The position numbers and the translations under genes were made by a program. Below the pieces are notes generated by a model, which was given only the letters and a program-made list of their open reading frames with translations, did not search any database and was not told the origin of the DNA. A DNA stretch of 63,987 bases, the filler included, from Chrysochromulina tobinii (Eukaryota): the NCBI GenBank assembly GCA_001275005.1. It is 6 parts of 6 records of this genome, joined end to end, with 100 filler letters (N's around TTAATTAATTAA, not from the genome) between each part and the next. Parts side by side here need not be neighbours in the genome. Positions count along the whole stretch, not along the records: positions 1 to 12,055 come from JWZX01001385.1; positions 12,156 to 17,198 come from JWZX01001388.1; positions 17,299 to 34,529 come from JWZX01001389.1; positions 34,630 to 40,044 come from JWZX01001390.1; positions 40,145 to 56,993 come from JWZX01001391.1; 1 more part is not named here. One strand, 5' to 3'. Shown in pieces: positions 1 through 54,875 of this stretch; positions within the stretch are counted from its first letter, which is position 1; every line of letters starts with the position of its first letter.

Positions 1-3000
1 GGCGCGGTCCGCGGGCGTTGCGTTGCAGACGGCGGATGCGCCGACAGTGCGCAAGTGGCTGCTAGGTGCGGAGGCTCGTCAGTCGGGGCTGAGCCGCGAG
101 GAGGGCCTGGCGCTGCTGGCGCACTGCCTGAGCGATATGATCGACGGCTCGGTTGACGTGGGCGTGCTGCACGGCCTGAGGCTGCTGCCACTCGCTAGTG
201 GCTCGTTCGGTGAGCTGCAACTCGCCGACGCGCCCTCGCTCTTGCTTTGCGAAGCTTCCGAGCGTAAGCTGTTTTGCCATCAGCCTGCGCTGCTCGTGGC
301 GGTCGACTTGGACGGTCCTCTCGGCCAGGTGCTCGGGCGCGTAGCCGCCTCGGGACGCACGAATGTCTCTCGCTTCTCCGCGGCGCTTGTGGCGCGTCTG
401 CTGCCCGCGATGCTCCCGTCTGGGTGGCGCGGAGCCGAGGTGGTTGCACTCCGCGCCGTGTCGGCCACGGCGCCTGTTGCCGATGGCACCCTCGGCGCCG
501 CGGTCGAGGAGTGGCCTCCGGCTGATGGCGACGGGGAGCCAACTATGGAGTGGCTGCTGGCGCTCTGGGAGTACCTCGGCCATTCGCATGCTCAGGCGCC
601 GCTCGCGCCCCTCGCTGGCTGGCCCCTGCTGCCTGCCGACGGCGATGTGGCGTATGCAATACCTAAGGGTGGATTGCAAGCCTCTCGCATGCTCGACTTG
701 GAAGGCTGCCCCGCGGAGCTGAGCCGGTGCCTGCGCGGTGCAGGCTGCTTGGCGCTGCACGGGAGCGTGAGCCATGCGCACCCGCAGCTGCGCCAATGCG
801 CACCGACGGTGTCAGCGTGCTCGGTGCTCCGTGCACTTCAGGTTGCGGCCACAAGCGCTGCCGTGGGTAGCTTCGACAGGAGCATCGGCGGCCTCTTCGT
901 ATCTGTCGGCCTGTCCGAACGACGCGCACTCCGGGCGATGCTCGCGGAGAGGCGCCATGTCGAGCAGCGAGAACTCTCTGGCGCCGACCATGGCAGATTA
1001 TTGGGCGTGCTCCGCGAGCTGCCCATCTACGAGGTACATGCATCCTCTCTGCCAATGGCTCATTCGGCCGCCGAAGGCGAGCCTGTGGAACGGTGCGCCG
1101 AGGAGAGTGAGGCCACAGGGTTTGGTTGCGTGGCGCTCGATTTGGAGATCCATCGTCTCGCGCCCGAGGGCATCCAGATGTCGCTGCTGGACGAGCGCTT
1201 CGTGCGCTGCGTGGTCACAGGCGAGTCGGGCCTCGTGCTCTTCGCGGGCATCCCGCAGATCGGGCGCAGCCGCTTCTACCGCGAGCATGTGTTCCCTCGG
1301 CTGGGTGAGCTGCAGGCGAGCGAGCGCGACCGCGCGATGGTGGGTGCTCTGTACGAGCTGCACGCGTTGAGTGCGGAGGACGCGGGGTTTGTGGACGCGT
1401 TGCGAGAGCTGGCGTTCGTGCCGGTGGCGCGCGGCGGTCTGCGCCGCGCCAGTGAGCTGTTTCATCCGCGTGTTGGGGAGGCGGCGGAGCTGCTGGATGG
1501 CGCGGAGGTCTACCCGAGCGGCTTGTTCGCCGAGGCGGACGCATTGAGCGTGCTCGAGCGACTGGGCATGCGCGCGCTCGTGACGCGGAGCGCGGTGCTG
1601 CAGAGCGCGCGCGCCATCGAAACCTTGTCGCGCCTCGACACGGGCGATGAGGGCGACGTGGCGCGCCGTCGTGGTTTTAAGCTGCTCGCCTTCATCAACA
1701 CGCACCTCGAGCGCCTTCCTGTCGACGTCGATGAGTTTCAGCCGCTCCTCGACGACCTTGAGTTCACACGTGCGCTCGCCAAGACGGCGTGGATGCCAGT
1801 GCTCCGGACGGCGGCGCACCCTCAGTTGCCGTGGGCGGCGCGGCAGAGCGCTGTCGCGGCGCCTGAGGCGCTGCGCCCTCTCAAAGACATGTGGCTCGTG
1901 TCGCACTGCCTGGGGGTCTTGGAGGGCGAGCTCACCTGCGAGCCGCTCGTGTGCGCCTTTGGGTGGGCCGCGCCGCCGCGGGCGCCGATCGTGTGCGCGC
2001 AGCTGGTGCAGCTCGCCAAGATTTACAGCGCGGCGACCGTGTCGGAGCTCATGCTGTGGAATGAGCTGTGCGAGCCCGCGTACGCGCAGCTCACGGCGCT
2101 TGCGTCCACGCCCGAGTTTGCACCAGTCGAGACGATGCTGCGCTCGCGCCCGTGCCTCTGGATCGATCGTGACGTGGGATTCCTCTCGCCCGAGCATGTG
2201 GCCTTCTCCGAGTCTACCGTCGCGTCCAGGTACCTGATGACCTCTGACGAAACCTCTGATTGCCTCTGATGACGTCCGAGTGCATCCCTCGTCAGGTACC
2301 TGATGACCTCTGATGAAACACCTCTGATTGCCTGTGATGACGTCCGAGTGCATCCCTCATCAGGTACCTCGCGCGCGTGACGCCGCAGCTGCTCGCCTTT
2401 GAGCCACTGCTCCGCGCTCTCGGTGTGCGCGAGTCCCTCTCGCCGCGTGACTACGTGCACGCGAACACGTGCTTCGTGCGCGACGCCAAGGAGCGGCCCC
2501 TCGCGCCCGAGACGCTCAAGGCGTGTGTCGCCTCGCTTGGCGCCATCGTCACGTCCGCGCAGGCGGAGGGCAGCGCCGTGCAGGGCAGCGCCGATGTGCT
2601 CACCCAGCACGGGGCTGTCTTCGTACCGGACACGGCGTGCGTGCTGCGTCCCGTCGCTGAGCTCACCTTCGATGACGCGCCGTGGATGTCGACGGCTCTA
2701 CGCGCGCAGCCCGACGGCGCTGGCCTACGGTTCGTGCGCATGGCCAACGCCCCACACAAGCCGACGCATGCAAGTGCTCACCACGGCGCGCGCCCTCCCC
2801 CCCCCCCTTTAGGTTCGTGCACGAGAGTGTGTCGAGCTCCCTGGCCGAAGCGCTTGGCGCCCGCTCGCTCCGCTACATGCTGCTGCTCGAAGAGAAGCTC
2901 ACCGATCGTCTTCCATGCCCGACGACGGAGCAAGTAGGCCGTGCGCTCGCCGAAGGCGCGCCCGGGATGGCGCCCGGGTTGCACGTGCTCATGGACTTGA

Positions 3001-4076
3001 TCGAAGTCGCTGAAGCGCTCGGCGCACACGCCGTGCATCTGCTGCTCGATCGGCGCAAGCACGGCACGCATTCGTTGCTCTCGCCCTCCCTCAGCGCCTT
3101 CCAAGGCGAGGCGCTGTGCGTCTACATGCCCGGCGTCCTCCTCGACAAGGAGCGCCTGTGCCGGCTGCAGCTCCCGTACGACGCGCGTACCGGTACGTCC
3201 AAAGGGGGCGCGGCCGTGGCGGGCGCCGTCCCGGGCACCGCCACCGAGCACAACCGGGTGCGCCAGCGGCTGCTCGGCATGTACGTGCTCTCGGAGGTGG
3301 CGTGCGTCGTGAGCGGCGGCTCCATGGTCTTCTTCGACCCGAGTGGCAAGTACCTGCCCGCGTCCGTCACGGGCGCCGTCTCGAGCGCCCCCACGGGCGC
3401 CGTCTCGAGCAAGTACCTGCCCGCGTCCGTCACGGGTGGCGGCGACGCATCGAGCGCCGTCTCGAGCGCTTCCGCGGGCGCCGTCTCGAGCGCTTCCTCG
3501 AGCGCCGTCTCGAGCGCTTCCTCGGGCGCCGTCTCGAGCAAGGACAGGGGCGCCGACTCGAGCGCCGTCGGGCGAGCGTACCCGATCGTACCGGGCGACC
3601 TTCCCCAGCGGTTCCCCGACCAATTCGCACCGCTTGGCGTCTTTGGCTTCCGTCCGCACGCAGGCAAGCCTTTGGACGGCACGCTGCTGCGCCTGCCTCT
3701 GCGGACACACCTGCTCGCGGTGCACAGCCAGCTGTGCACGCAATTCTGGCGCGTGCCACGCGTGCGCAGCCTGGTGCAGTCGCTGCAGAGGCACGCGCCC
3801 ACCCTCCTCCTCGGGCTCAGCCACGTCGACGTCGTCTCGGCGGCGGAGTGGCCCCCAACTGACGAGGCACCCACGCGCACGCTGCAGGTCTCCCTCGCGC
3901 CCAGCTCGCTCGATGGACTCGCCTCGCGCGGAGCCCTGCTCAAGGAGACCTCGTGGCGCCAGGTCTCCCTCATGGGCTTCTTCGGCGCCAAGCAGCACAA
4001 GGAGGGCATGCTCACGCTCGATGTGACGATCATCTCGCGCGAGCTCGAGCGTCGTGGTGAGCGCGAGCTCGAGCGT

Positions 4077-4108
<32 letters not shown>

Positions 4109-7100
4109 CTCGCGCAGCGCAACAACGGTCGCGAGCGGCGACCAGCCGACTTCCAGGCCCTCGACGGAGTCGCCGACGCGCGAGTTGCCCACCGCCCACC
4201 ACGACGTGCCGCCCGCCACGACGCGCGAGTCGCCCACCGCCCACCCCGACGCCCCGCCCGCCACGGCGCCAGCCACCGCGGCTCTGCCGAGCGTCGTGGT
4301 GGGCGAGGCGGACGTGGTGCTGCTCGCCGTGGCCACGGGGCCAGCCGTCGAGGGCGCCGAGCTCGTGGATGGCCACGTCATCCATCGCGATGGCGAGGCG
4401 CTGGGTGCGCATCCATTGCATGCGAGTGCTCAGCACAGCGCGTTCGGCCGCCCCGGGGATGCGCAGCCGACGGGTCCATTGCATGCAAGTGATCACCACA
4501 GCGCGTTCGGTGGCCCCGGGGATGCGCAGCCGACGGGTGCGCGCGCACACCACGACGCCCTCGATGGCATCGTCGTCGACGACGATGAAGATCTGGACGG
4601 CATCGACGATGAGCAGGCGGACGAGGACGACGGCGCCGCGCTGCTTCGGTGCCCCGAGCAACTTCACACCGACCGTTGGCTCATGTGTGAAGTGCTCGCG
4701 GCTGGGCGCACACGGACCCTCGCTCTCGACGGGCGCTTCGCCGCGCGCGGCGCGATGCCCTACGCCGCCGTGGCCGCCCACCTGCTCCACGATGGGCACG
4801 TGCCTCAGAAGCCATATGGCGGGGAGCTTGCTGCGCCGCTACCTCTGACGCTTCGGACCGGGCTTCCGGTCCACGTCATGGGCCGGTTCGAGATGCATCC
4901 GGTGAGGCGGGCCGTGCCTCTGACGAAACCTCCGAGCGCCTCTGACGAAACCTCCGATCGCCACCCCCCCTCAGGTGACGCGGGCCGTGCCTCTGGCCGC
5001 GGAGAGCTCTCACGCGGACGAGGCGATGCGCGTCGAGTGGAATCGCGAGCTCCTTGGCGCCGTCGCGAGCGCATATGCGTCGCTGCTGGGCCTGCTCCCC
5101 CGCCAGATGCAGCGCCAGCCGCCCGAGACCATGTACCGGTACTTCCCGACCGGCAGCGCCGTCGCAATCGAGGAGCTCCAACCAACGCTGCTCACGCCGC
5201 TGTACGCCGCGACGGCGGACTCGCCCCTCTTCCTGGCGCAGGTACGTTGATGGCCACTGAGGACCTGCCTTGCATGCGAGTGCTCACCACAGCGCCATGC
5301 TGCCCCTCTCTCTGGCGCAGTCGCGCGATGTCGAGGACGGCGAGCGTGCGCCGCCTCGGCGACTGTGCAAGCTCGAGGAAGGCCTTCTGCTCCCGAGCGG
5401 TCTCGACGCGCGGCTCGAGGCGTTCGTGCGCCAGCACTTTACCATCTTCGACCTGCCGCAGCCTCTCGCTGAGCACCTGATCCACCACGGGCCACCTGCC
5501 GCTCGGCCGTTCACGCCGCTCGCGATGCGCCAGGTGCGTTGATTGCCACTGATGACCTGCCTTGCATGCAAGTGCTCACCACCGCTCGGCCGTTCACGCC
5601 GCTCGCGATGCGCCAGTACCTCAAGCGTAAGCTCGCGGACCCAAAGAAACGCGAGCGCCGCCTCTCCATGGGCGCCTGGGACGCGATGCACTCGGCCCCC
5701 TTTGTGCTCGATCTACTCGCGCTGTGCGTCGACGACCTCAAAAAGGGCACGTACGCCGAGCTCGACGAGCTCTATCTGCTTCCCCTCGCCAAGGGAGCCC
5801 AGGTGCGTTGATGGCCACTGATGACCTGCCTGGCATGCAAGTGCTCACCACAGCGCCGTGCTTCCCCTCGCCAAGGGACCCCTCGCCCGTCTCGGCGCGC
5901 CCGAGCGCTACATCGTCGCCTCCGGCGAGCAGCAGAAACTGCTGCCGCACCTGCTGCCCCAGTTTGTCTCGCCGCTGTGCGTGGAGCATCCCAAAGTAGG
6001 CGTCCTGTTTGCGAGCAGGTGGGCTTGCCGATGATGACCACTGATGACCACTGATGACCTGCCTCGCATGCAAGTGCTCACCACAGCGCCCTGTTTGCGA
6101 GCAGCTCGGGCCACCTTGGACTGCTCGCTGCGGACTTTCGGCGCGCGACGAAGCTTCGAGAGCTCGATCTGCAACTTCTCGCTCGCGAGATCCGGATGCC
6201 GGCGTCGCAGGCGCCCGCGCCGGAGTGGCTCCATGCCTTCTGGGGCACCGTCGCCGCCCACGCCCCCGCCGCTGCGCAGGGCATCGGAGCTTCCCACCTC
6301 AAGGAGCTGACCGACCTCTTCGGGCCGCGTCGCAAACTGCTGCCGCTCGCCTCCGGGGAGGTGGCGGCTCTTGAAGACCTTGCCACCGTCCTCGCTCTCC
6401 CCGAGGACCTTGCGAGCACTCCACTCGTCACCACGCCGGGAAGCGTCGTCGGCGTCGGGGTCGCCGGTGCGCCGACGCGTTCGTCCGCGCCGCCCCCGCC
6501 TTCGAATGGTTCGAATGGGCTGTACGATGCGGACACGCTGGACGCGTTGGACACCTTGGAACGTGCCAACGCCCCTCGCGACGCGCCCGGGACGGCGCCT
6601 CGAGACGCGCCGCCGCCGGTCGTCGGTGCAGCCATCCTCACGGAACGGTCCCTCGACGGAACTGACGGAACTGACGGAACTGACGGAACTGACGGAACTG
6701 ACGCAGCCATCCTCACGGTACGGTCCCTCCTCGCGACCCTCGCGATGCCGCTGCTCGCGCCCGCTTTCGTGCGCGCGCCCGGGACGGCGCCTCGCGCGGT
6801 CTCCGAGGGCGCCGCCGCAGCGGCGGCCGCCGCCATCGGCATCGCGCCGGCCCTCGGGCAGGGCTACTTCGCCGCCGATGCGTCTGACGAGCACCATGTG
6901 GCGGGCGCACTTGTCGACAAGCTGGGGAGCGCGCACTCGGCGGGGGTGGTGCAGTGGGGAGCCTTGCATGCAAACCCGGCGAGCACGCGCGCGCTCGTCG
7001 CGACGATTGCGCGCGCGCATGCGGCGCGGGGTGGGCAGCGGCTGCTCAGCCCGAGCCGCAAGGCCGTGCTCGCCAAGCTGCCCATCTTTGAGACGTGCGC

Positions 7101-10100
7101 GCCGGAGATGGTCATGCGCGGCGCCGGGCGGGCCGAGGCGCGAGGGTACGAGGGCGCGAGGGCGCCCGAGACGACGCGTTTCGTCAGCCTCGACGAGCCG
7201 CGCTACCTGCTGGCGGCTCGCCATCCCCTGTTTTCCCCTTCGGCCGCGCAGGCGGTCCACTTTCTCGCCCACGACGCGCCCGCACCAGTGCTCGCCCTGC
7301 TCGAGGACATGGGCGTGCGTCGGCTCGAGGATCACGACGTGTGCGAGCTCTTCGTGCTGCCGACCTTCTCCTCCCTGGCGTCGTCCAAGCAGCGCGCGGT
7401 GCGCGAGCACCTGCTGCGCCACTGGCAAGCCTTCCGGCAGCACGACCGGCTGCGCGAGGCGCTCAGGACGACGCCATTCGTTCCGGTAGGCGAGCGCCTC
7501 CTTCGGCCTTCCGAGGTGCTCGACCCTCGCGTCGATGTGCTCTCGTACATCTTTGGTGGCGAGTCGGTCTTTCCCGAGGCCGAGTGCTGCACCGACGAGT
7601 GGCTCGCGATGCTCGCCGCCCTCGGCATGCGCACCTCGATCGACCGCAACGCCTTCCTCGAGTGCGCGCGCAAGGTACGCTGCAGCTGCGCCCCCAGTCA
7701 CAGCATGCAAGTGCTCAGCACGGCGTCGCTGCAGCTCGGCCCCCAGTCACAGCATGCAAGTGCTCAGCATAGCGTCCTCCCTTCCCCCCTTTCCCCCTTT
7801 CACAGGTGCAGCAGCTCGGCGGCGCGCAGCCATTTGGCACGCCACGCGCCGAAGCTCCGCCCACGCCCGACGTGCTCTCGCGCGCCGCTTTGCTGACCTC
7901 TCATTTGATCGCTCACTTCGGCGCGCTCACCTCCACCGCCGAGGACGACGACGACGGCAACGACGGCGGCGACGACGACGCCGCGCGCGCGACGGGCGCC
8001 GCCGACCGCTCACCCTCAGCCTCGATCTCGATCTCGAGCTTCTGCGCCTCGCTGAGCCGCGTGCGCTTCATCCCGAGCCATGCGCCGTCGGCGGGCGTCG
8101 CAGCGCATGCAGGCGAGCCGACGCTCGCGTGCTTCGCCGAGCTCGCGCTGCACCAGGTGCGTTGATGGCCACTGAGGACCTGCCTTGCATGCAAGTGCTC
8201 ACCACAGCGCCGTGCTGCACCAGGACCGCCACCTGGTGTGGAGCGTCGCGCCGCTACTCAAGCGCGAGCTCACACCGCCGAGATCGCACTGGGGGGAGCT
8301 CGGGCTGCTGCACCCGCCCCCCCCCTCGCTCGTCCTCGCGCACGGGCTCACGATCTCCGCCGAGGCGCCGGACGCGTGGCCTTACCCCGAGGACCCCGCG
8401 GAGCTCGTCGTGGGCTCGATCTGGGCCTTCCTCAACGAGCGATGGCACACGATCCCCGCCGACCTCCGCGCGCGCCTCACGACGGCACCGTTGCTCCTAT
8501 GCGGCGCCGCCTTCGTCTCGCCGCAGCGTGCCTTCCGAAGCTGCCCCGCTTCGTGTCAGCCCCTCTTCCAGCCGACGGCGGCCCTCTCGAGCGTACCGGC
8601 ACCAGCCGAGTTTGTGCTCGAGTCTCTCGGGGTCGTGGCCGAGCCCACGCTGCAGCACTACACGCGGCTGCTGCGCGAGCTGCCCGCCGAGTGCTCGGGA
8701 CGACGCCTCTCGCCGCCCGAACGGCGCGCGCTACTCGCAGGTGGGCTTGCCACTGATTGCGATTGATTGCCATTGATTGCCTCTGAGTGCCTCTGAGTGC
8801 CTCTGATTGCTAATGAGTGCGAATGAGTGCGAATGAGTGTCTCTGAGTGCCAATGAGTGCCTCTGAGTGCCTCTGAGTGCCTCTGATTGCTTCTGAGAGA
8901 CCTCGCCGGAGCGCTGCTCGCTCCTCGCAGCCCTCAAGCTCGCCGCGAACGCGCCCGGCTTTGCGCCCGACGGCCGGCTGGCCGTGCTGACCGCCGACGG
9001 GTGCGCTGTGGCCGCGGACAAGGTCGCCGTCGACGATGCGCCGTGGCTGCTCCGTCGGCTTCGCTCGGGCGTTGTGCACGTGGCCTCGTGCGCCCTCGAG
9101 CCCGCACTGCGCGCGAAGCTCCGCCTCCGACCCCTCTCAGAGGTCATCCGAGTGGTCCTCGCCCCTGGTTCCGAGCCGACGATCGAGAACACGTGCGACG
9201 ACTTCGGTGCGGCCGAGCTCAGCGCAGCGCGCGGATCCGCTCGCATGCACGTGCTCACCACGGCGCCCCTCGTCTCCCCACAGGTGCGGCCGAGCTCACC
9301 GCGCGGATCCGCTCGATGGACTTTGCGGCGGCGGCGTCGCGACTGCTCGCCGCACACGCGGGCTGGCGAGATCGCGACCTCGTCGCGACGCCACGCGGGC
9401 TGCGCGCCGAGGCGATCGGGCTCGCGCTGCGCCCGTACCGAGTCACGCTCGTGCGCACGCTGCGCACGAGGCTGCAGCTCACCAGCAGCGGCGAGGACGT
9501 GACCGCGGCTGCTCCCTCCGACGACGGCCCCGGCCCCGGCGCGGCTGGCGCGGCTGGCGCGGCTGGTGCGGCTGGCGCGGCTGGTGCGGCGTCGACGAGC
9601 GCGGCGGCCTCTGCCCACAACGACGCGACTGCCCACGACGACGCGTGGTACGTCGACCGTAGGGGTTCGGAACTCCTACTGCTCGCCACGGCGCCGGCAG
9701 GGCTGAGCCGCGAGCTACTCCTCGCACAGGCCGTGTGTGAGGTGCTCGGGATCGACGCACCCACAAGCCTCGCGCCGTTACTTGCTGTGAATGCATCGCA
9801 GGCGCTCCCCACGCTCGCGCGGTTGAGGGTAGTGCCGCCGCCGCAATGGGCCGCCGCGAGTGCCATCGGCAGCGCAGGAACGCCTTGCACCCCCGAAGAC
9901 GAGGCCCTGCTTCAGCTCCGTCCCATGCGCGCCTACTTTGCGGGCGAGGTCGTGTGCATCTCCGCAAGCCAGCTCGGCGCCCACTACGGCGCTGCAGGGG
10001 TCGACGAGGCGGACGGGTACGTGTATGCCGAGGTGGACGTGGCCGTACCCGCCGCGACGGCGCCACACGCCGACGGGCGCGGCGGCGGCGGCTCCTTCGA

Positions 10101-10686
10101 CGGTGGCGGCGGCGCACTCTTTGGCATGCATTCTGGTGCACAGGTGACACTCCGGGTAGGCAGCCAGCGCACACGCATGCAATGCCTCTCTCTCCAGGTG
10201 CACTCATTCCGCTCGCTACGGCGCGAACGCGCCGAGGCGAGCGGTGCGACTGCCGTCGGCGGCCGCGCTCAAGACGGCGCCGACGGCGCGATGCCGGGCG
10301 CGATGCCGGGCTCGTCGACGGGTGCGCCGCCCGGCCCCTCCTCCGCTGAGCTCGTGGAGGCAGTCTCGGCGGTGCTGCGGCGCGCGGGCGTGCCGTTGGG
10401 GCTCGAGACGACCGAGCTGCTCGAGGCGAACCTCGCGCTCAAGACGGCGCTGACCGCGAGCCGCTCCGAGCTCGAGGAGCAAGCGCTCGAGACGACGCGT
10501 TGTCGCGAGCAGCTCGAGGCGATGGAGCGCGTCGTCACGTGCCAGGTGTGCATGACGCGGCGGACCGACACCCTGCTCGGCGGGTGCGGCCACCTCCTCT
10601 GCGCCACGTGCGCCAGGCAGGTCGGCGAGCGATGCCCCTATTGCCGCGCCGCGGTCACGGGGCAGATGATGCGCATGCGCTGGTGA
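1..10686 (+). CDS. SACS: Sacsin-like protein with C-terminal RING finger (5'-truncated; 11 inferred introns: 2230-2363, 2730-2812, 4902-4974, 5242-5320, 5534-5616, 5803-5875, 6019-6104, 7675-7805, 8157-8223, 8741-8930, 9207-9283)
   Basis: Sacsin-repeat motifs: LRRASELFHPRV..LERLGMR, LRFVHESVS..LG, a degenerate HATPase-like block LMDLIEVAEALGA..LLLDRRKHG..SLLSPSLSAFQGEAL, GTLLRLPLRT, TGLPVHVMGRF and LLRPSEVLDP. It ends in CQVC..CGHLLCATC..CPYC (RING), as plant-type sacsins do. Removing the GT-AG introns joins the ORF fragments in frame. Confidence 0.85.
2230..2363 (+). other. Tandem pair of near-identical introns (66 + 68 nt) joined at an AG|GT junction
   Basis: ccag|gtacctgatg...cgtcag|gtacctgatg...catcag|gtacctc; removal restores S-R-Y-L-A-R. 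Confidence 0.85.
5242..6104 (+). mobile_element. Cluster of four related introner-like introns (family B: 5242-5320, 5534-5616, 5803-5875, 6019-6104)
   Basis: Shared core gt(g/a)cgttgatggccactga(t/g)gacctgccttgcatgcaagtgctcaccacagcg (the 6019 copy has a variant 5' end), followed by a copy of upstream exon sequence. The same core is at 8157-8223 and, on the minus strand, at 51341-51415. Confidence 0.8.
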
Positions 10687-12155: not shown

Positions 12156-15100
12156 CCGCCGCTTCGAGCTCGCTCTGCTTCAGCGCCGCCTCGAGCGCCT
12201 CCTCCTGCTCCGCCTGCCTGCGGCGCTGCTCGGCCTCACGCCACGCAGCCTCACGATCCCGACGCGCCGCTTCCTGCTCGACGGCAGCCATCTGCTGCTC
12301 AGCCTCTTGTGACGCCTTGGCGGCCGCCTGCTGAGCCTTGGTGCTCAGCTCGAGTGCAGCCGCCGTGTCGAGGAATGCATGCCGAAGCGTCTGACTCGCG
12401 CTCAGGCGCCGCGCGAGGGCCTCCTCGCTGGTCGCCGCGTCAGCAAGAAGGCTCTCGAGTAGGTCCGGCAAGTGCGCGTCCGCCTGCTTCGCCGCTTCGC
12501 GCGACCATGCACTGAGCATGCGATCGTCGTCGACGTCGAAGCGGCGGATGCATTTCTGCTGCTCCTCGGCAGTCGGTGGCAGGCAGCACGCAAAGAGGCA
12601 GCAGACGCCGTAGGAGAACATGTCGCCCATCGCGGTAGGCTTCGCGTCTCGCTCGCGGCCCTCTCTGCTCGCCTTGAGGATCTCGGGCGCCACGTAGAGC
12701 TCGGTGAAGGCGATGCCACCGACCGTGCTCGCCCTCATGCTGTTGCGCGCGCCCTCGGTCTGTTGGCGGCGCGCGGACTCAAAGTCGGCCAGGTGCGCCG
12801 TCGCGCGCTCGCCCTCGAGAGACACGAGGACATTCTCAAGCTTGACGTCGCCGTGCGCGAGGCCGTGGCTGTGCAGGTGGCGGAGCGCCTCGCACAGCTG
12901 CCCAAGCAGCACCTTGCGCTGCCACACCTCGGGCCTCCTACTTCTCCTATCGCTCAGCCCCAAGTTGCGCAAACCCAGCTCCAACCAGCTCTTCTCGGGA
13001 ACTGTCCCGTTCAGCCAGTGGAGCATGTCACCTCCGTTGTAGTAGGGCAGCTGCACGTACGCGGCGTAGCTCGGCTCGTAGACGACGAAGACGGCGTCGA
13101 CGGAGGCGATGAACTGGCATTCTGAGAGCTGACCGAGCAGTTTCACCTGATGAGGGAGGTCATCAGTGATGAGGGAGGTCATCAGTGATGTCATCAGGCA
13201 TTCTGAGAGCTGACCGAGCAGTTTCACCTCTTTGAGCAGCGCCTTCCACTCGGATGCATCGTTCAGCTTGTACTCCTTGAGCACACAGAGCTCAGCCTTC
13301 GCCCCGTCACCGGCGTAACTCGCTTGCCACACCTCGTGTCTCCCGTCCTTTTTGCTGATACGTACTCTGTCGTCGTAGTGTGTCAGCTCGCGCTCGACGA
13401 GCACGCGCCGCAGCTCGTCCGAGTCGACCCCCTCCGCCGCGCCCAGCTTGAGCAGCGGCTCCATCGCGAAGAGCTCCGGAAAGTGCGCGGCGGCCACCTG
13501 GGCCAGCCTCATGCGCTCCACGTGCAGCGCGCGCTGGGCGCACTGCACGTCACGTCGCGCTTGGCGGGTGGCTTCGATGGCTGCATCCGCAGCATGCGGA
13601 GCGTTCAGACGGCGCTTCGCCTTATTCTCTTCGGCAAGCCTGTCTTCGAGCACGTCCGTCACGCCGTTCCATGCCTCATGCAGCGCGTGCAGCTTGTCGG
13701 TGCTTGGCCGTTCCGCGTGGCGGCTCAAGTCCTCGCGCTCTTCGCGCACTCTGCTCAACTGCGTCACCCACTCGTCGAGCATGGGCAGCACTTGTTTGTG
13801 CAGACGCTCGAGCCACACCTGCTCTCAGAGAAGCACTCAGACGCACTCAGAGCCTATCAGACGCGCCCATCAGAGCCAATCACAGCCAATCAGAGCCCAT
13901 CAGAGCCAATCCGCCACACCTGCTCGGCAAGCGTGAGTGCGCACTCCCCATGCTGCTGCTGCTGCTGCAACGCGGCCGCCTCCGCGGTCAGGCTCCGCCG
14001 CTCCTTCTCGCCCTCATCGTGAGCGCTCAGCGCATCCTCGAGCACACGGACCAAGGCGACCCGTGCCTCGTTTCGCACCTTTGTGGCGTCGCGCAGTGAC
14101 TCGTCCTCATTGGCCGCCACTGCGGCCAAGAGGCGCACGCGATCCTGCGCCTTGCAGAGCTCCGAGCGGGCGTTGGCCATCTTGCCGAGTGCCATCCTCC
14201 AGTGACTCACCTTGTCCTCGGCTCTCTCGGCCGCCGCTCTCTCAACCGCAAGCCTCTCGGCCGCCGCCCTCTCGGCCGCCGCCTTCTCCTCCGCAGCCTT
14301 CTCCGCCGCCGCCTTCTCGGCCGCCGCCTTCTCGGCCGCCGCCTTCTCGGCTGCCGCCTTCTTGTCGGCCGCCGCCTTGTCGGCCGCCGCCTTCTTCTCG
14401 GCCGCCGCCTTCTCGGCCGCTGCCTTCTTCTCGACCACCGCCCTCTCGGCCGCCGCCTTCTTCTCGGCCGCCGCCTTCTCGGCCGCCGCCTTTTCCGCCG
14501 CCGCCTTCTTCTCGACCATCGCCTTCTTGTCGGCCACCGCCTTCTTGTCAGCCGCCTTCTTCTCGGCCGCCGCCTTCTCGGCCGCCGCCTTCTTGTCGGC
14601 CGCAGCCCTCTCGGCCGCCGCCTTCTTCTCGTCAGCCGCCTTCTTGGGTGCCAGCGTCGAGGCAGGCGGAGCTGAGGATGGCGGCACCGGCGCCTCGTTC
14701 ATGGATAGGAGTACACTCACTGCTGCATCCACGTCGTGCTCGCATTGAAAGAGAACAGCGGCCAGGGTCTCCTCGGAGATCTCGGGGAAGATGGCATGCA
14801 GGCGGGCCGCCGCCTTCTCGGCCGCCGCTTTCTTGTCTGCGGCCGTTGTCTTGGCCGCCGTTTTCTTGGCCGCCGCCTTGTTGGCTGCCACCCTCTCGGC
14901 CGCCGCCTTGTCGGCTGCCGCCCTCTCGGCCGCCGCCCTGGACTCGATGTCGAAGTCCAGAGCGGGGTCCTGCACCCCCCTCCTTTGATTGGGCCGCCGA
15001 TTACGTTTGCGGCGCAGCCGACAAAGGCGCAGCACGATGGCGACACCGATGCAGACGCCAATGACAGCGATCCCACCAACCACGGCGCCGATAATGATGC

Positions 15101-31547: not shown

Positions 31548-31607
31548 GCGGGGCAAAAGGGCTTGTGGCGGCGTGGCCTGTGGCATCTGGCCCAAGCAAG
31601 TGTAGCG

Positions 31608-33452: not shown

Positions 33453-34529
33453 TCACGGTATCCTAGGGAAGGACCAGGGTAGGACCGATGCCGGAGGCCA
33501 GTAACCTATGAGGCTGACAGAGGAGAGGAGCCGGGATCGGGGGATAGAAGGGACCCGGACGGCTACAAATGTCACCCATGGTCCCATAAGCCACATAGGG
33601 GCCTCGGAGGAGGTGCGGCATGGTCCTGAGTGGACAGACACGCGCAAGGAGACTATGGACCGGCGAGAGCCGGGGAGGTGGGGTCCGCCGCGGGGGGGTG
33701 GGAACAGGTCCCAACCGTCCAGATAAGGGATAGAGGCGCCCTGGGCGGAGCGAGAGCGGGCCGAGCGGAGACCAAGCTCGATCTCGCAGAGGCGGTCGAT
33801 GCACTTGCGCACCTTGGCCTTGTGCGCGTATCGGGCGGGCATGGCGGAGACGCGGGCTTCGTGCCGCTGCAGCATGGCTGCGACCGGCTCGAGGTCGTCG
33901 CTCTGAGCGGTGGAATCGGCAAAGCGGCCGACCTCGTTGGCGTCGACAGAGCGCATGGAGGGATCGGATTCGACGACGTTAAGAAGGAAGCGCTTGAAGG
34001 AGTGGTGGCGAAGGAGGGTAGCAGCGTCGTGGGGGACACCGGCGGCGAGGAGGACGCCGTGGAGAGAGGCGAGGGCACGGGGTGAAGAGGGTGGAGATAG
34101 GGCCCACCGGGAGGCGAGGGTGGGAGAACCGTCCGGCGAGTCGGTGTCGAGGAGAAGGCAACGAACGTCGGAGGCGGCGTCGAGCATCGGCAGGATGGCA
34201 TCGAGGGTGGCGGAGGAGCCGTCGAGGGCGTCGACGACAGCCCAGAAGGGGCGCGGGCGCATCTTGGAGCGGTCGGGATTCTTGTCGGATATGACGGATC
34301 CGAACATGACCCGGAAGGAAGGGTTGGTGGGAGGCCACGGGACGACAGCGTTGATGACGCAGGAGGAGGCTTGCTCGTAGCGGAGCGCGGCCTTGCCCAT
34401 GGTGAACCACGCGGCTGCGTGAGCACGCACGAAGGGAGACTGAGCGGAGGCGGCGAGAGAGGAAAGGGCCTCCATCACGGCGAGAGTGATGCTCTCCTTC
34501 GGGTTGTCGCGACTGGGGCCGATGGAGCG
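33453..34529 (-). CDS. Hypothetical protein, 5'-truncated at the contig edge, possibly a repeat-derived fragment
   Basis: The frame is open from the contig edge for about 358 codons; strong purine/pyrimidine strand skew; no recognisable motif. Confidence 0.3.
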   Translation of the reverse strand, partial: RSIGPSRDNPKESITLAVMEALSSLAASAQSPFVRAHAAAWFTMGKAALRYEQASSCVINAVVPWPPTNPSFRVMFGSVISDKNPDRSKMRPRPFWAVVDALDGSSATLDAILPMLDAASDVRCLLLDTDSPDGSPTLASRWALSPPSSPRALASLHGVLLAAGVPHDAATLLRHHSFKRFLLNVVESDPSMRSVDANEVGRFADSTAQSDDLEPVAAMLQRHEARVSAMPARYAHKAKVRKCIDRLCEIELGLRSARSRSAQGASIPYLDGWDLFPPPRGGPHLPGSRRSIVSLRVSVHSGPCRTSSEAPMWLMGPWVTFVAVRVPSIPRSRLLSSVSLIGYWPPASVLPWSFPRIP

Positions 34530-43084: not shown

Positions 43085-43112
43085 TTCGCCGAGAGCACTC
43101 CCGAGGGCCTCC

Positions 43113-45909
<2,797 letters not shown>

Positions 45910-47975: not shown

Positions 47976-48136
47976 GTAACTCGCTCGCTCGGCGGACCTC
48001 CGTTCCCCACTAAAACTATTGAAGGCTGAGAATTGGCTGTGAACAATTCGGGTCCCAGCAATGAATGGCCTTTTTTGGCGCACTTTATCATCGTCGCACG
48101 AGGTACATCCAAGTCGTCTCTCGCACTGCTACAGAG

Positions 48137-51100
48137 CTACTCGAGTGCGGGGCGCACGCGCAGCTGCACCTCGGTCGACAGCACCTTGTTCGCCTCGCCG
48201 AGCGCCGTTTCGGATGCGACCACCGCGACCGAACCCTTCGAGGCCACGGTGTCGAGCCGCTCGGCGAACTCGACGAAGTCGGCCGCGGTGGTGGCGAGCA
48301 CCTCGTTGCGCCACCGCTGCCGGTCCTCCTCACTGATCTGCTGCACATACCTGATGAGGGAGGCAATCAGTGGTCCTCAGTGGTAGCTCGTCAGTGATAG
48401 CTCATCAATGGAGGTAATCTGAGGCCCTCCGAGGCACTCCGTGGCAATCAGAGGTCATCCGAGGTCATCCGTGGCAATCCATCGCAATCCATCGCAATCC
48501 GTGCGTACCGCAGCATGCTTGTATAGCCTTTCGAGTCGACGGACGAGGGGCTGTCTAGATCCCCGATGGCGCCGATGATGGCCTTCGAGAGCTCTGCCGG
48601 CCCAATCGGCCTCTCGCGCAGGAAGGCGGCCGTGCCATCATAAGCTGCGAGGGTGTCCACGATATTTGGATCCCGGTAAGATGAGTAGAGCGCAAGCCCA
48701 CTCGTGCGTCCGAAGCCGAGCGAGCAGCCATAGGCGCCGCCCTGCACGCGCACGGCGTCCCATAGGTACGCGGTGCGCAGGTAGCGCGTGATGACCGATG
48801 CGGCGCCTCGCACGATCTCGCCGGGCGCGTAGATCGGGCACCCTTTGGCCACGTAGTTGACCTGCGTCCCGATTTGGAGCCCAGTACGCGTGGGCAGCAC
48901 CAAGCCCAAAGGGCGCACCCAGGGCTGCAGCGCGGCGGCATCGGCCTTGGGCGGCAAGCGCGCGATCAGCGAGGTCACGAGCGCCGTCGCGGTTGGCAGC
49001 GAGGCGGCATCGGCGGACAAGTTGATGATCGCACCGTCGCTCGTGAGGAGCGCAGAACGCATGCGCTCCAGGCGCGATCGCAGCGTGGGCCAGTCCGTCT
49101 CTGCGACCGCGAGCGCCTCCTTGATGGTGCTGTATTGGGGCAGGCCGCTCATGAGGTCATCCACGTACCCCTCTAAAGAGTATTGGGCCGCGAGCGTGGA
49201 CGAGGCGTACGAATTGCCCGCCGAGACGGCGCTCGCCTCGAGGCCCACCTGATGAGGGGTGCAATCAATGGTAATCAGTGGTGGACGAGGCGTACGAATT
49301 GCCCGCCGAGACGGCGCTCGCCTCGAGGCCCACCTGCCACGTGGCAGTAGAGGAGGCACTCAAAGGCACTCAGAGGGCACTCAGGGGCACTCCGTGGGCA
49401 TCAGAGGCACACAGAGAGGCCATCAGAAACAGGGGCAAACAGAGAGGCCATCAGAGGCAATGAACAGAACTCAGAGAGGCAATGAGAGGCACTCAGAGAG
49501 GCCATCACGATGAAAGCCCACCTTGGATTCCTTGAGCATCTCCTTGACGCGCTCGGGCTGATTGAGATTCGTCGAGGTGAGCATCTCGGTCGCGAGATCG
49601 AAGAGGTTGCCGCATTTGGAAACGACGGCCTTGCCGCGCAGCATGAGGTACCCCTGAACTTCGTCAGCGGAGCCCACGGCAGCGAGCCCATTGGGTCCGA
49701 GAAGCGGCTTGCGCATGGTCGTGTACGAGACCCTGAGGCCGCCTGTCTGGCTGCCAATACGGCGCGAGAAGGCGGTCTCATCCGACGTGGCCGTGCCGAG
49801 TTCGGAGAGCATTCGCGTCAGCAGCGGCAGTAACGGCAAGTCATCGAGAGAGAGCCGCCGCAGCTCGAGCGCGACGTCGAGGTACACGATGCCGTCGGTG
49901 GGCAGCTCATGCGTCAGCAGCGTCGCGCCCTCGGCCTGCGGCAGTCAGTCGCAGTCAGTCGCAGTCAGTCGCAGTCAGTCGCAGTCAGTCGCAGCCAGTC
50001 GCAGTCAGTCGCAGTCAGTCGCAGTCAGTCGCAATCGTCGCACCATCGGCAATCAGGTGCTCATCAGGTGCTCATCAGGTGCTCATCCATGGCACTCGAT
50101 GACACGCAACGACACTCACAGGTACTCAACGGCACTCAATAACGGCACACACGTAGTCCAATCAAGTGGTCCAGTCAATCTCACCTGCGGCTCAATCTCG
50201 ATCGGGAGCGGCGCCGATCTCGTCTCGAGATCGCTCGTGGTGAGCACCGGTAGCTTCGCCAGCGCCTCCGGAGGGTCGTGTGCCGCTTGCTGGGCCTGAT
50301 GAGAGAGGGAATCCCTGAGGGTCAGTGATGGCCATCAGCAGGTCATCAGCTGTCAGCTGATGAGAGAGGCAATCCCTGAGGGTCAGTAATGGCCATCAGC
50401 AGGTCATCAGCAGGTCATCAGCAGGCAATCAACTGGCCACCCCAAGGTCGCATTCTCACCTTGAGCTCGGAGGTTTCAGCCGCGAGGCGCGCGAGATCGG
50501 TCGCTTCGAACGTCTGGGCGGCCGCCGCGAGTGCCGCCGCCTCCTGCGCCGCGAGCGCTGCGCCAAGCGCCGTGTCGGGCGTCAACGTCAGCGTGAGTCG
50601 CGACGGGTTGTCGAGCAGAAAGGTCTTGAGCAGCTGCTGGAACACGGGAGTGCCCGCCGCGAGATCTGCTTTGAGCTCCGCGAGGGCGGCTTCAAAGTAC
50701 AACGGGGCAATCGGGTCGCGATTGTAATTCCACTCCCCGAGCGTGGCGTAAAGGAAGGACATGCCCTTCATGGGCGACGCGGAGAGAGATCGCAGCCGGA
50801 ATTCGATCGTGTTCATGCTGGCCTCGATGGCGTCCGCTTCGAAGCCGGTGGCCGCGCATTGCTCGAGCGTCTCCAGGATGAGGTGCGTCACCTTCTCCTT
50901 GGCGTCGTCGCCCAACACGACGCCCTTGAGCCCCACCTGCCACGTGGCAGAGGGTCATCAGCGGCCAATTGGGGCAATCAGCGGTCATCAGGGGCAATCA
51001 GAGGAACTCAGTGCACCTGCCACGTGGCCTGCTGCAGCCCGCTCGAGTAACCGCCGCCCGTGATCGACGCGCCCAGGCCCGACGCCATGAGCGGCCGCTC

Positions 51101-52303
51101 GAGCGCCGAGGCCGACGTGCCAAACAGCAGGTGGTTGAGCACGGAGAGCCCCAGCTTCGTCTTGGGCGCCAGAGGCTCTGTGTTGAGCAGCCACGCGAGC
51201 GTCACGAACTGCGTGGGCGCGACTGGGCTGTTCGGGTCGAGAGGGTACGCCTCGCTCGCCTCGTACGGCGCCGTCGCGAGAGCCTGCACCGGGATCACCT
51301 CGGCAGCACCGTCGAGCGGCGTAAAGTCGCGCAGGTACGCCTGGAGCATGAACAGCCGATAGCGCCGTGGTGAGCACTTGCATGCAAGGCAGGTCATCAG
51401 CGGCAATCATCGTACCTGGAGCATGAAGAGGCGCTCGCTTATTGGCAGCTCGTCGGGGCGCCCGTACAGAAAGAGGCGAGCGTTGGCCGGGTGGTAGTAC
51501 GTCTTGTGGAAGGCCTCGAAGGCCTCATACGTGAGCGCTGGGATCGCGCGAGGGTCGCCGCCCGAGTCGATCGAGTAGATCGGGTGTCCGCGGAACAGGT
51601 GCCGCTGGATGGCGCGATAGTGGCGCGAGTCCGCAGAGGAGTAGACACCCTTCATCTCGTTGAAGACGACGCCCTTGTACGAGAGCGGCTGCGCCTTCTG
51701 CGGGTCCGTCACCTCGTAGTGCCACCCCTCCTGCTTCAGGATCTGCGGCCCGCGCACTGGATCGCGGATGAGAGGATGAAAGCACGCGTCGAGGTACACG
51801 TCGACGAGGTTGCGGAAGTCCTGCGTGTTCATGCTCGCGACCGGGTACATGGTCTTGTCGGGCGCGGTCATGGCGTTCAGGAACGTCTTGAGCGACCCCT
51901 TGAGCAGCTCGACGAACGGCTCCTTGAGCGGGTACTTGCGAGAGCCGCAGAGCACGCTGTGCTCGAGGATGTGCGGCACGCCCGTGTCGTCCTTGGGCAG
52001 CGTGCGGAAGTTGCACGAGAAGACCTTGTTCTCGTCGTCCGCGTCGATGGACAGGACCTCCGCGCCGGTCGACTTGTGACGGTAGAGCGATGCCGTCAGT
52101 GCGCGCTCCGACACGTGCTCGGTCGTCAGCAGGTCGAAGTCGTGCGTCCAGTCATAGGTTGAGGCGTCGGGCGCACGAACAGCGGTCTGGGTGCTCATAG
52201 TAGCCAGGCCGCCGCGCAGCGCCGAGCCCATTGCCATCGGTGAGCGCACCGCGCGCATGGCGGCCGCGCCAGGCAGGAGGGCCATTAGCGACCGGAAATG
52301 CAT
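48137..52303 (-). CDS. PREP: Presequence protease (peptidase M16C); introns 51341-51415, 50937-51016, 50296-50459, 49936-50184, 49249-49521, 48351-48508
   Basis: Transit-peptide-like N-terminus; TGVPHILEHSVLCGSRKYPLKEPF (HxxEH); FLNAMT; KGVVFNEMKG; YYHPANAR; LWDAVRVQGGAYG; SSYRDPN. Confidence 0.95.
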
Positions 52304-52516
52304 CCTTCTCGGAAGCGTCCTGCGGCGTAGGCGCGTTACAAAAGTTTCCGGTTGCGCGAAACGCTCCACACACTCTGAGGCGGAAGGTGTCGGGTGCCAT
52401 GACACACCTTTTTATGAGCAACCAAAAATCTCACCTTCCTGCCAAATTAGGGACGACGGTTCGATGGGTCGCTCCCTGCCAAGTCCATCCACACATCGTT
52501 TGTGACTTTGTGACTG

Positions 52517-54875
52517 ATGGCGCTGTGGAGCTCGAAGTGGCGAAGTGGAGCTCCTCCATCAGCGCCACCGACGTCGCCCCGTCTCCTGGGTACACGTTTC
52601 TCTCCAATTGCGTGGGAGCTTGGCCTGCAAGAGGTGGCGGACGCGTCCACTTGGGAATGGCAGACGGCCTCGGCTGTGGCCGCTTCCCTCATCGTGCTAT
52701 GCACGTGCTTGCTATTGGCTGCCTGGGCGGCGATGCAGTGCCTCGCTCGTCTCCTCAGCCGGGTTGCCAAGGCTGCTGACGATGACGCCGCCGCAGCCGA
52801 GGCAGTTCTATTACCGCCGAGCCACCCGCGCAGCCAAGAGGACAGCGGTAGTGATATTGAATGCCACTCGATGCCTGTGGGGATTTGCGAGGCGAGCAAT
52901 GGCAAGTTGCCAACGAGCGGCGCGCTCACGACAGCGTCCATCGATGCGCGACCAGTCCCTCTGCTGCCACGCAACATACAGCTGCCAGCTCCCCACTGCG
53001 CAACTCCCCACTGCACAACAAGCGGGCCAACGCCCTTGGCCAGCGTGCCGGCGGCGCCAAGCTTGCCTGCCACGCCAGCAGCTGCGCGGCGCTCGGGCGA
53101 GCCAACAAGGTCCCCGCCCTCACGCAAGTACCTCGAAGCGTATTGCCGCGCGCAGTCGCTCACCCGTCCGCCGCTAGAGGCCGCCGCCTCTCACAACGGC
53201 GCTCACAACGGCGCCTCGAACCACGGCGCTCACAACAGCGCCTCTCACAACGGCGCTGGCGCCGGCTCCGTCGGAGATCCTTTCGGAGCTCCCGTGTTTC
53301 GTCAAGATCCTTTCGGAGCTCCCGCGTTCGCGCCTTCGGGTTCCAATCGCGAGCCCGTGTTCGCGCCGTCCCGAGCAATCGGCTTGCCGCTGGTCCCGCC
53401 GCTTCTGCCGCGCCGCCTTCTGCCGGCGCCGCCACCCGAGGCGCCGCCCGAGGCCGCAGCTCCCTACGGCGCCTCGCCTCAGAGCGGTCTGAGCGAGCTG
53501 CCCGAGCTCAGCAGGGAGCTCAGCGGGGCGTCGCCCGTTTCGCCTCGGCCGTACTCGCCCGGTGGCACTGCGACCGCAGGATACTCGCCGCCGACCTTTT
53601 TAGGGCGAACAGTGGGCATGCACGAGGGGCAAGACGCCGTCGCGGGCGCCTTCTTGCCGCAGATCGAGTTCGAGTTGAGTCGGCTCGCGAGGGAGGCGGC
53701 GGAGAGGGCTGCGCCGGCGGTCCGGGTGGCGAAGGAGGAGATCGCGAAGCATTTTGAGGACATCGAGGAGGCAGCAGCAGCGGAGGCGATGGCGAAGGAG
53801 GCAGTGGCGGAGGCAGTGGCAGAGGCGGCCGCGGAGGCGGCCGCGGAGATGGCCGCGGAGATGGCCGCGGAGATGGCCGAAGTGGCCGTGACTCAAGCAG
53901 TCTCACGGGCTGCAGCGGCGAAAGCGGCAGCGGCCGAGGTAGCAGCGGCTGAGAAGGCAGCGGCCGAGGCGGCAGCACACGCGGAGATGGAGAAGGCGGC
54001 TGCGGCGGCGGCGAATCGGGCAGCAGAGAAGGCGGCGCCGGCGCAGGCGCAGAGGGTAGCGGCAGAGAAGGCGGCGGCGGAGCGGCGTGCCAAAGCCCGA
54101 AGTGCCTCCGCCGCTGATGAGCAAACATCTCGTCTTCCCACAGCCCGCGGAAGCAGAAGTGCTCACACAGCCCGATGTGCCTCCGCTGCCAAGGCTCGCG
54201 AGAAAGCCACCGCGCAACCGGTGGCAGTGGCCGTCTCTTCGCCCGTTCGTCGCGCCGCAGCGCAGCAGGTGCTCTTGGCGGTACGCAAGCGCTCACTCGC
54301 GGCGTTCGACGAAATCGACCTCGCCACGCTGGATTTGGCCATCGAGCAGTTGCAGCTCGATCTCGCGACGATCTCGCAGCCGCAGCTCGATCTCGCGACG
54401 ATCTCGCAGCCGCAGCTCGATCTCGCGACGATCTCGCAGCCGCAGCTCGATCTCGCGACGATCTCCTGGTCGGAGAAGTCGAGCCCAAGTCGAGCCCAGC
54501 ACGGCGCCTGCGCCTGTGCGCCCAGCACGGCGCCGGGCTCGAAGGAATCCTCGAGTGCGAAGCTTTCTACGGTGGGGTCCGATTGGAAGTGCTGACGAGC
54601 CTTGATGGGTCCTACTTTTGGCCTGAGTGCCCTTGATTGCCTCCCTCCTCAGGTGAGAGGTCAGCTGAAGGCTCTGAGTGCCCTTGATTGCCCCCCTCCT
54701 CAGGTGAGAGGCCAGCTGGAAGGCTCTGAGTGCCCTTGATTGCCCCCCTCCTCAGGTGAGAGGCCAGCTGGAAGCTCTGGCGCACCATCGCGAGCAGCTG
54801 GTGCAGATTGAGGAGCGTCAACGGCAACTGTTGAAGGGTCCTCCCAGCTTGAGCAGCGCCAAGACCTCATTGTGA
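52517..54875 (+). CDS. Single-pass membrane protein with Pro/Ala/Glu-rich tail; probable last intron 54572-54755 and terminal exon 54756-54875
   Basis: [27 protein letters not shown] coiled coil; [10 protein letters not shown] x4. Splicing through the stacked acceptors gives [26 protein letters not shown]...stop. Confidence 0.6.

Follow-up and report, generated by a model that had tools for sequence, protein, structure and literature searches.

Introns of Chrysochromulina tobinii that join a variable exon duplication to sequence shared between introns

The window analysed here is a stretch of 63,987 nucleotides, filler included, made of six contigs of the alga Chrysochromulina tobinii (assembly GCA_001275005.1). 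It contains a set of introns in which one end is a copy, of variable length, of the flanking exon, and the remainder is sequence common to other introns. The phenomenon is real and recent, it is not explained by a described introner family, and it resembles the gain of introns by break repair with an existing intron as the patch. That the introns arose by copying from existing introns, without a dedicated element, is very probable. The more specific proposal, namely that staggered breaks were filled with a partial copy of an existing intron, most likely of its excised RNA, is tentative, and we hold it with rather less than even confidence.

Chrysochromulina tobinii is a freshwater haptophyte with a genome of 59 Mb, a GC content of 63.4% and about one annotated intron per gene (PMC4580454). 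In the window, 30 introns in 8 genes were set by hand from GT/GC–AG ends and reading frame. A type A intron opens with a copy of the downstream exon start, which gives the GT, and closes with the acceptor of a cassette; in type B the cassette gives the donor, and the intron closes with a copy of the upstream exon end, which gives the AG. A duplication was counted where one intron end matched its own flanking exon with a score of at least 6, the null being the exons of other introns. The relatives referred to are metagenome open reading frames (ORFs; P numbers), in which the presence of an intron is read from proteins, by their tails or by read-through, and not from DNA. A preliminary description of the same DNA had put the system at about 25 introns in six genes. 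All the examples it cited are found at their positions, but the count is 30 in 8 genes, of which five pass the threshold, and its sixth gene, at 54.6 kb, holds nested units only.

Exon duplications and shared modules

One end matches the intron's own flanking exon in 20 of the 30 introns (11 of type A and 10 of type B, one being both), as against 20 of 870 pairings of introns with the exons of other introns; at a score of at least 10 the figures become 11 of 30 and 2 of 870. A chance resemblance of introns to their exons is excluded by this comparison. Perfect repeats in the clear cases measure 8, 8, 8, 9, 9, 11, 13, 13, 15, 15, 16, 25, 33, 35, 44 and 56 nt, and there is therefore no fixed duplication length; the earlier view of the duplications as variable stands, with a measured range of about 8–56 nt in place of about 6 to 53 nt. 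Ten introns fall below the threshold, and three of them (19402, 25692, 46361) have no repeat whatever. Terminal inverted repeats are absent, as had been described: five of the 30 introns reach a local score of just 6–7, and the rest are lower. The intron modules do contain a short hairpin and palindromes.

Where the intronic copy and the exon differ, the differences lie mostly at synonymous third positions at 24278–24295 (4 of 4), 51341–51358 (2 of 2) and 26761–26785 (most of them), a skew which is absent at 4902, 5242 and 6019. About half would be expected at such positions if both copies drift, and a diverged allele or paralogue as the source would be an alternative. At 4902–4907 the sole mismatch in a 21-nt copy gives the donor a G at +5, a change that would make the splice site stronger; P0389 and P0539 retain the exon reading there. 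The intron at 27075–27262, which has a GC donor, repeats the upstream exon end internally, at about 27170–27188, as successive B and A events might leave.

A same-sense match to another intron is found for 29 of the 30 introns, where shuffled introns give 1.6, and similar introns occur in unrelated genes, as in introners in the broad sense. The similarity at both intron ends which an introner survey looks for (PMC9860276) is not seen, one end being locus-specific. Four modules recur: a donor, arrays of 10–11-nt units containing CTGA, a probable branch module and an acceptor. Against expectations of 0.26 and 0.18, respectively, the branch module has 12 matches and the acceptor module 18. The donor cassettes, four in a sacsin-like gene and one in a PreP gene, are identical at 43–46 of 48 positions and all start at the GT. 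Two mirror-image architectures had been described and both polarities do exist, but the split is modular, inasmuch as the type A introns at 2730 and 9207 carry the supposedly ‘type B’ branch module. This module lies ten times in introns and twice in in-frame coding DNA, and it is concentrated in the sacsin-like gene (8 of 11 introns, against 1 of 19 others; p 0.0002).

The modules also keep to one strand, as do the introner-like elements ascribed to reverse splicing. The decamer motif is in sense in 66 of 67 intronic matches, with 11 further matches in ORFs and one intergenic, and the acceptor motif is intronic and in sense in 12 of 12, with none in the 8.8 kb of intergenic DNA of the window. 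The cassette edge at 51362 recurs with different flanks in 74 contigs of the DNA run X9; the cassette family is therefore widespread in the genome. No 14-mer shared between introns occurs outside introns in the window, including within a Helitron-like ORF (34855–39657, − strand) of 1600 aa, which has a Helitron_like_N domain (PF14214, E 8e-10) and no called intron. In Rfam no intron matches at gathering score, and the introns have no tRNA, 7SL or 5S head and no A tail in their sequence. A structured-RNA role was considered and rejected, only 13147 of six introns folded as DNA lying below its shuffles (z −2.0). Scans of viral contigs with the cassettes gave 1, 0 and 0 matches, the single one being at the end of contig L001, where positions 1380–1549 are intron-like, with a branch module, 10-nt repeats and an internal duplication, and are probably haptophyte host DNA. 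The five bacterial matches of a prokaryote scan were treated as chance.

The two coding copies of the branch module, located by motif scan and open frame, form a 63-nt tandem in the sacsin-like gene at 4403–4536 (+ strand), in frame and not needed as an intron. Cassette DNA thus sits in a variable linker of the protein, where P0389 and P0539 add inverted local copies. A candidate intron at 4405–4529 was dropped; it had rested on a 1-nt error at 2729/2730. A 14-nt palindrome, CTGCCACGTGGCAG, in which 12 bases belong to PreP coding sequence, is confined to two PreP introns (49334–49347 and 50937–50950, − strand); it is possibly a tag of intron-to-intron copying over 1.6 kb, unless it is a common acceptor genome-wide.

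Splicing, individual introns and their presence in relatives

The splicing check used contigs only, from three of six matching RNA runs and one of 14 matching DNA runs, among the matches listed. RNA contigs skip 75, 80, 273 and 158 nt, which are the lengths of the PreP introns 51341–51415, 50937–51016, 49249–49521 and 48351–48508. The 80-nt skip appears in two runs (X15 and X19) and the others in one (X19), and the three RNA runs may be one campaign. The RNA junction check proposed at the outset is thereby passed by four PreP introns, which are spliced out at the predicted lengths and are not retained in these transcripts. Spliceosomal removal is seen in RNA for these four, and for the others it is predicted from open frame and homology. 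One RNA contig (X15, record 3) extends 60 nt into the last intron, and therefore unspliced RNA or DNA is also present. Removal of the introns gives stop-free frames of 3202 aa in the sacsin-like gene, 1525 in an ABC transporter, 788 in SRPK and 1054 in PreP. In the sacsin-like gene, whose 11 introns are based on reading frame and relatives' proteins, a premature stop results if any single one is kept; alignments of PreP homologues form six or seven blocks, broken at or gapped across the six PreP introns. The claim that splicing restores the original codons is in keeping with the frames of these four genes, with 5803 as a possible exception.

Assembly error, coupled with the chance resemblance already dealt with, has to be weighed against this evidence. 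Direct repeats are hard to assemble, and the absence of two introns from relatives, at 5534 (35-nt repeat) and 45176 (25-nt repeat), could be collapse. On the other side, the RNA contigs skip the predicted lengths, the same intron tails terminate relatives' ORFs on many contigs, and separately assembled DNA contigs of X9, which may be the same strain, run without differences into the duplicated segments 45199–45246 and 49307–49333, contrary to the artefact that the preliminary description had allowed for. Taken with the comparison of 20 of 30 against 20 of 870, an origin of the pattern in assembly error or chance is largely refuted, and we consider it barely credible.

The sacsin-like gene (2–10686, + strand; 3202-aa frame, PF25794) has a C-terminal RING, and its 5′ end is cut by the contig. 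Its first intron, 2230–2363, consists of two tandem units of about 68 nt with a 9-nt direct repeat and an acceptor module, at a position common to P0396 and P0568–P0577. By exon comparison, 2730–2812 is of type A, with a 9-nt repeat, branch module and pyrimidine tract, and is read through in the P0396 cluster and P0539; 4902–4974, also of type A (21-nt exon copy, one mismatch), is present in P0389 and P0539 too. Type B introns set by exon comparison are 5242–5320 (19-nt copy, two mismatches), 5534–5616 (35-nt perfect copy, polymorphic according to the relatives' ORFs) and 8157–8223 (10–11-nt copy), and 6019–6104, with its 15-nt copy, recurs in the 87%-identical P0382 group. An older intron, 7675–7805, contains two 49-nt units with the branch module and has the same position but a different interior in P0382. 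Judged from the sequence, 5803–5875 is of type B, with a 17-nt copy ending 9 nt short of the donor, 8741–8930 is a decamer-array intron with a decayed type B end, and 9207–9283 is of type A, with an exon copy of about 37 nt and the branch module. All 11 of the relatives' ORFs that cross the 5803 site contain an additional duplication of local sequence, about 66 nt long. The 3′ region of this gene, with the 7675 intron, seems to exist in a partial second copy (P0554–P0567, KOO34603.1), and in P0388, possibly a chimeric contig, a kinase is joined to that region.

On the − strand, the kinase gene has what appears to be a type A intron at 13147–13227, with a 33-nt perfect repeat (counting the AG), and a decamer-array intron at 13819–13919, in which exon comparison finds a 13-nt repeat split over both ends. 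The gene itself (13890–17144, −) is large, with Pro-rich, beta-helix-like and KAAAE-repeat regions preceding the kinase domain. In SRPK (−), 44132–44206 (44-nt perfect repeat, by exon comparison) and 45176–45246 (25-nt repeat) are of type A, and 44326–44609, as read from its sequence, ends in three 67-nt units, each an exon-start copy plus acceptor cassette. Within PreP (−), 48351–48508 joins a decamer array to an acceptor module, 49936–50184 is a decamer-array intron with an 8-nt repeat (exon comparison), and 50296–50459 has two 61-nt units ending in the acceptor module, according to sequence and homologue alignment. The PreP introns 50937–51016 (15-nt repeat) and 51341–51415 (12–13-nt copy) are of type B and are read through in P0201; the latter shares the 48-nt donor cassette of the sacsin introns at 43–45 of 48 positions. 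The gene at 54.6 kb contains an intron at 54572–54755 (+), set from reading frame only, whose end is made of three 52-nt units; this is simply local sequence duplicated in tandem across the acceptor. The ABCC-type transporter gene (22380–27642, +; 1525-aa frame, Pfam) has introns at 23271–23401, 24278–24388, 25692–25849, 26762–26858 and 27075–27262, all on the + strand.

The last 85 nt (49249–49333) of the 273-nt PreP intron 49249–49521 (−) are a 53-nt exon copy and cassette, joined to an older acceptor. This segment had been described as an intron in its own right with a 53-nt copy. RNA contigs of X19 remove 49249–49521 as one net unit, however, so the segment, whose copy is 53 nt plus CAG, extends an existing acceptor with no exon between. 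Removal in one step and in two are both compatible with the contigs. Similar extensions with no exon between are predicted from sequence for the units at 2296, 44326–44525, 50296 and 54653–54755. Intronic AG|GT junctions of this kind lie at 49333/49334, 2295/2296, 44526, 44459, 44392, 54652 and 54703, and are candidate recursive splice sites or alternative acceptors.

The presence/absence check suggested beforehand has a positive outcome at the protein level: five window introns are read through in close relatives, and the same donor cassette seemingly occupies two sites which are empty here. In the P0396 cluster (91–92% identical) all 11 ORFs begin within intron 2230, continue across the site of intron 2730, whose 9-nt repeat is too short to collapse in assembly, and end K-V-R-stop at window position 3149–3150 (+), which in the window is AAG|G without an intron. 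V-R-stop is the reading of the donor cassette, which points to a type B donor cassette at the relatives' site. P0539 is without the 2730 and 3149 introns and keeps 4902. P0201 (96% identical) reads through 51341 and 50937, and ends, at a site which is intron-free in the window, in GASMTSDDP, near the cassette reading GALMATDDL. Intron 5534 is absent from 7 of 13 ORFs, which keep 5242 and 5803, and present in the other 6; 45176 is absent from just one of 13 non-self SRPK ORFs (P0341), in which the next intron is kept. These last two absences could reflect either assembly collapse or precise loss between repeats.

Four full-length PreP ORFs on contigs of 9–23 kb (P0003, P0004, P0007, P0016) have no insert at the six intron sites and are, we infer, unspliced genomic calls; in a quick tree three of them group with Emiliania and Haptolina, and P0016 falls just outside. 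Haptophyte PreP orthologues on long contigs accordingly read through all six sites, against the ancient origin which had been named as a possible objection. Many introns are shared with relatives. Of the listed ABC transporter ORFs, 14 of 15 in the first cluster and all 15 in the second have their start or end at an intron site of the window or in an intron tail; relatives at 87% identity have 6019 and 7675 in common with it. Overall, the introns appear to have been gained recently. Read-through flags for P0582, P0584, P0585, P0586, P0590 and P0342 were set aside as coming from a duplicated copy or annotation, and P0563 and P0564, which read through 7675, were not counted, being on short contigs and probably from a paralogue or transcript. 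A metagenome scan with PreP exon 1 found 80 loci at 50–68% identity and no close genomic orthologue.

A possible mechanism and its alternatives

The inserted parts of the introns are intron sequence and not random genomic pieces. The variable duplications, the lack of terminal inverted repeats and the similarity at one end argue against cut-and-paste, and uphold the earlier suggestion of staggered breaks. In the explanation that we prefer, the two strands would be nicked about 8–56 nt apart in a transcribed gene. For type A, the 3′ end of the template strand would prime at the 3′ end of an intron RNA, such that the copy ends exactly at the AG and stops variably; for type B, priming would occur inside the intron RNA via a few matching bases, and the copy would reach the 5′ end of the RNA, which is exactly the GT. 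Fill-in between the nicks would produce the duplicate, which supplies the missing GT or AG. Products would survive selection if they are spliced exactly and attain about 67 nt; templates would likely be taken by preference from the same gene's introns, and recombination between the repeats could later multiply a unit or delete it precisely. Candidates for the polymerase would be the reverse transcriptase of a long interspersed nuclear element (LINE) or a repair polymerase. One RNA-copying geometry would give both types and would account for the exact GT/AG ends, the orientation and the intron-derived inserts together, and the orientation and intron-only location point to an RNA template. Among 13 young stand-alone introns selected by eye, a longer duplicate goes with a shorter cassette (rho −0.91), the two summing to 67–86 nt, and nested units are as short as 52 nt, in agreement with a lower limit on intron length imposed by selection. 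It may also be, on a slightly more guarded footing, that introns multiply without a transposon through such a cycle, in which excised RNAs patch breaks and half an intron plus a duplicate makes a new intron, which then becomes a new template.

Microhomology at the free junctions amounts to 59 nt over 20 events, against 34 ± 5 nt for shuffled duplicates and 29 ± 5 nt for random exon ends, the value being reached in 0 of 2000 in either control; moreover, for 13 of 29 introns the best match is another intron of the same gene, where 5.6 would be expected (p 0.003). Both features would also follow from DNA template switching, akin to MMBIR (break-induced replication mediated by microhomology) or the action of polymerase theta, in which a strand would jump by microhomology to the DNA of another intron, often in the same gene, copy 30–75 nt and return behind its start point, with selection keeping the splicing products. 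This origin is a close rival, possible if somewhat doubtful. An inverted local copy in P0389, the plain tandem duplications in introns and exons and the in-frame exonic cassette at 4403–4536 speak for it, and microhomology-templated insertions have been described (PMC8421209). It predicts, however, random and mostly exonic captures together with antisense and intergenic cassettes, whereas the window has one antisense intronic and one intergenic decamer and no acceptor or branch module so placed. It likewise predicts frequent in-frame extra codons at junctions, for which 5803 is the only candidate. The 5803 site was also considered as proof that exon bases of the template had been carried along, and rejected, as distant sacsins align with and without the three residues; the window introns contain no clear case of such bases.

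The near-identical 48-nt cassette in unlinked genes, and the 74 contigs of X9 with a loose end at the cassette edge (51362), could instead reflect a non-autonomous mobile element, SINE-like (short interspersed nuclear element) or MITE-like (miniature inverted-repeat transposable element), of which the cassettes would be truncated copies of a master. Marine Chrysochromulina metagenome-assembled genomes (MAGs) do carry introners (PMC9860276). The absence of terminal inverted repeats, of a fixed repeat length, of a poly(A) tail and of an RNA-family head tells against such an element, as do the mixing of modules between types and the same-gene bias. Truncation together with duplications of variable length is a typical mark of target-primed reverse transcription; yet type B retains the 5′ end, which is the reverse of retroposon truncation, and copies that are in sense only and almost confined to introns make a classical retroposon unlikely. 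All in all, we judge a mobile element of this kind unlikely. Nor do the scanned ORFs of the window supply the candidate element that had been envisaged, their Pfam domains including no reverse transcriptase. Long ORFs in repeat-like DNA at 33453–34529, 57095–59911 and 60965–63985 have no Pfam match and are possibly mobile-element genes; 57095–59911 has no usable match in the Atlas.

A reverse transcriptase that switched between host mRNA and intron RNA, the cDNA then converting the gene, would lead to the same final structure in a sense-only and gene-only manner, and is named as a proposed route in PMC3443670. Conversion by cDNA should mostly remove neighbouring introns, and the ORFs without 5534 keep introns 213 and 186 nt away; this route is accordingly very improbable.

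Several points weigh against the copying of intron RNA at staggered breaks. The free junctions were set by eye, which is estimated to inflate the microhomology sum by about 7 nt (that of 49249 was set 2 nt short), and without the sacsin gene the same-gene bias, at 6 of 17 against 2.9 (p 0.09), is not significant. Among the RNA contigs of the three runs no long de novo type A intron is seen spliced, and the scanned ORFs of the window, as mentioned, yield no reverse transcriptase. DNA-level copying, too, is at work in this lineage. Within a 27-nt duplication P0389 has, from its protein, an inverted copy of local sequence: EHLHAM occurs twice between the copies of a nine-residue stretch, and is the reverse-strand reading of local downstream DNA. 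Several units are plain local tandem duplications (54653–54755, and 5803 in relatives). In exons, both the sense orientation and the exact ends could be due to selection alone. What is said here of target-primed reverse transcription and polymerase theta is general background.

Relation to known routes of intron gain

How new introns originate is an open question, for which recent surveys credit transposons (PMC9860276, PMC12130899). Chrysochromulina tobinii was screened in the 2022 survey, where among the rows listed it is named just in the genome list (PMC9860276), and it has 0 introner families in supplement file 7 of the 2025 survey (PMC12130899), whose 15 haptophyte rows give called duplications of 2–5 nt and one Emiliania family with 10-bp terminal direct repeats. 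Published screens need similarity at both intron ends and filter repeat-rich families (PMC9860276). A literature search, with most subscription papers outside its reach, turned up no account of half-intron cassettes joined to duplications that are long and variable, and none of 10–11-bp intronic repeats in Emiliania huxleyi. If the proposal is true, a Daphnia-like repair footprint with an identifiable intron-derived insert would be a mass source of introns missed by screens for similarity at both ends, and the cycle, self-propagating and reversible, would be one that is still polymorphic in nature and that published introner screens do not see. The system is testable: the alga is cultured, relatives occur in many lake metagenomes, and in young introns the duplication and the junction with the template are both preserved.

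With regard to mobile elements, the fixed short duplication and terminal inverted repeats of MITE-like DNA-transposon introners are both missing here, and the presence of target duplications departs from Helitron-derived introners. A variable-length target duplication is shared with non-LTR (long terminal repeat) retroposons and SINEs; their shared 3′ end with 5′ truncation is seen in type A and reversed in type B, and their extragenic copies in both orientations are not found in the window, with its 8.8 kb of intergenic DNA. Closer are those introners which co-opt one splice site from the target duplication, known from Aureococcus, Symbiodinium and Polarella (classes 4, 5, 6, 8 and 10; 10.1101/2020.10.14.339549), and family 5 of a Chrysochromulina sp. 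TARA MAG, with a 4 bp duplication and no inverted repeats (10.1101/2022.06.06.494994). As in the present introns, one splice site is carried, the other comes from duplicated target and mRNA length is kept; family 5, like type B, carries the 5′ site and co-opts the 3′ site, again without inverted repeats. In co-opting introners, however, the element is complete and the duplications have a set length of 4 or 8 nt, whereas here they span about 8–56 nt with one shared end, the inner junction varies with microhomology, and both polarities share modules.

Micromonas introner elements, for which an R-loop reverse-splicing model exists (PMC4540971), and the sister introns of Hypoxylaceae, with their filler-RNA model (PMC8469720), have in common with the present system the restriction to the coding strand, intron RNA as the proposed source and clustered gains. 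In these models an entire intron goes in cleanly, and the introns of Hypoxylaceae are not flanked by a duplication; what is found here is not that, but half an intron with a long duplication.

The neointrons of Daphnia pulex, from staggered double-strand breaks with repeats of 4–12 bp (PMC4202315), and similar cases in Drosophila (PMC2809761), resemble the present introns in the repetition of the exon end at the far end of the intron (20 of 30 here), in their polymorphism and in later internal duplications which lengthen the intron. Daphnia inserts are mostly of no known source, whereas here the repeats are longer and the insert, far from unique, is intron sequence common to genes. Finally, in intron gain by tandem genomic duplication of AGGT (PMC3443670) the duplicate likewise supplies a splice site, and this process fits the nested extensions at 54653–54755; the de novo introns of C. 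tobinii differ from it in holding, in addition, 33–75 nt in common with other introns.

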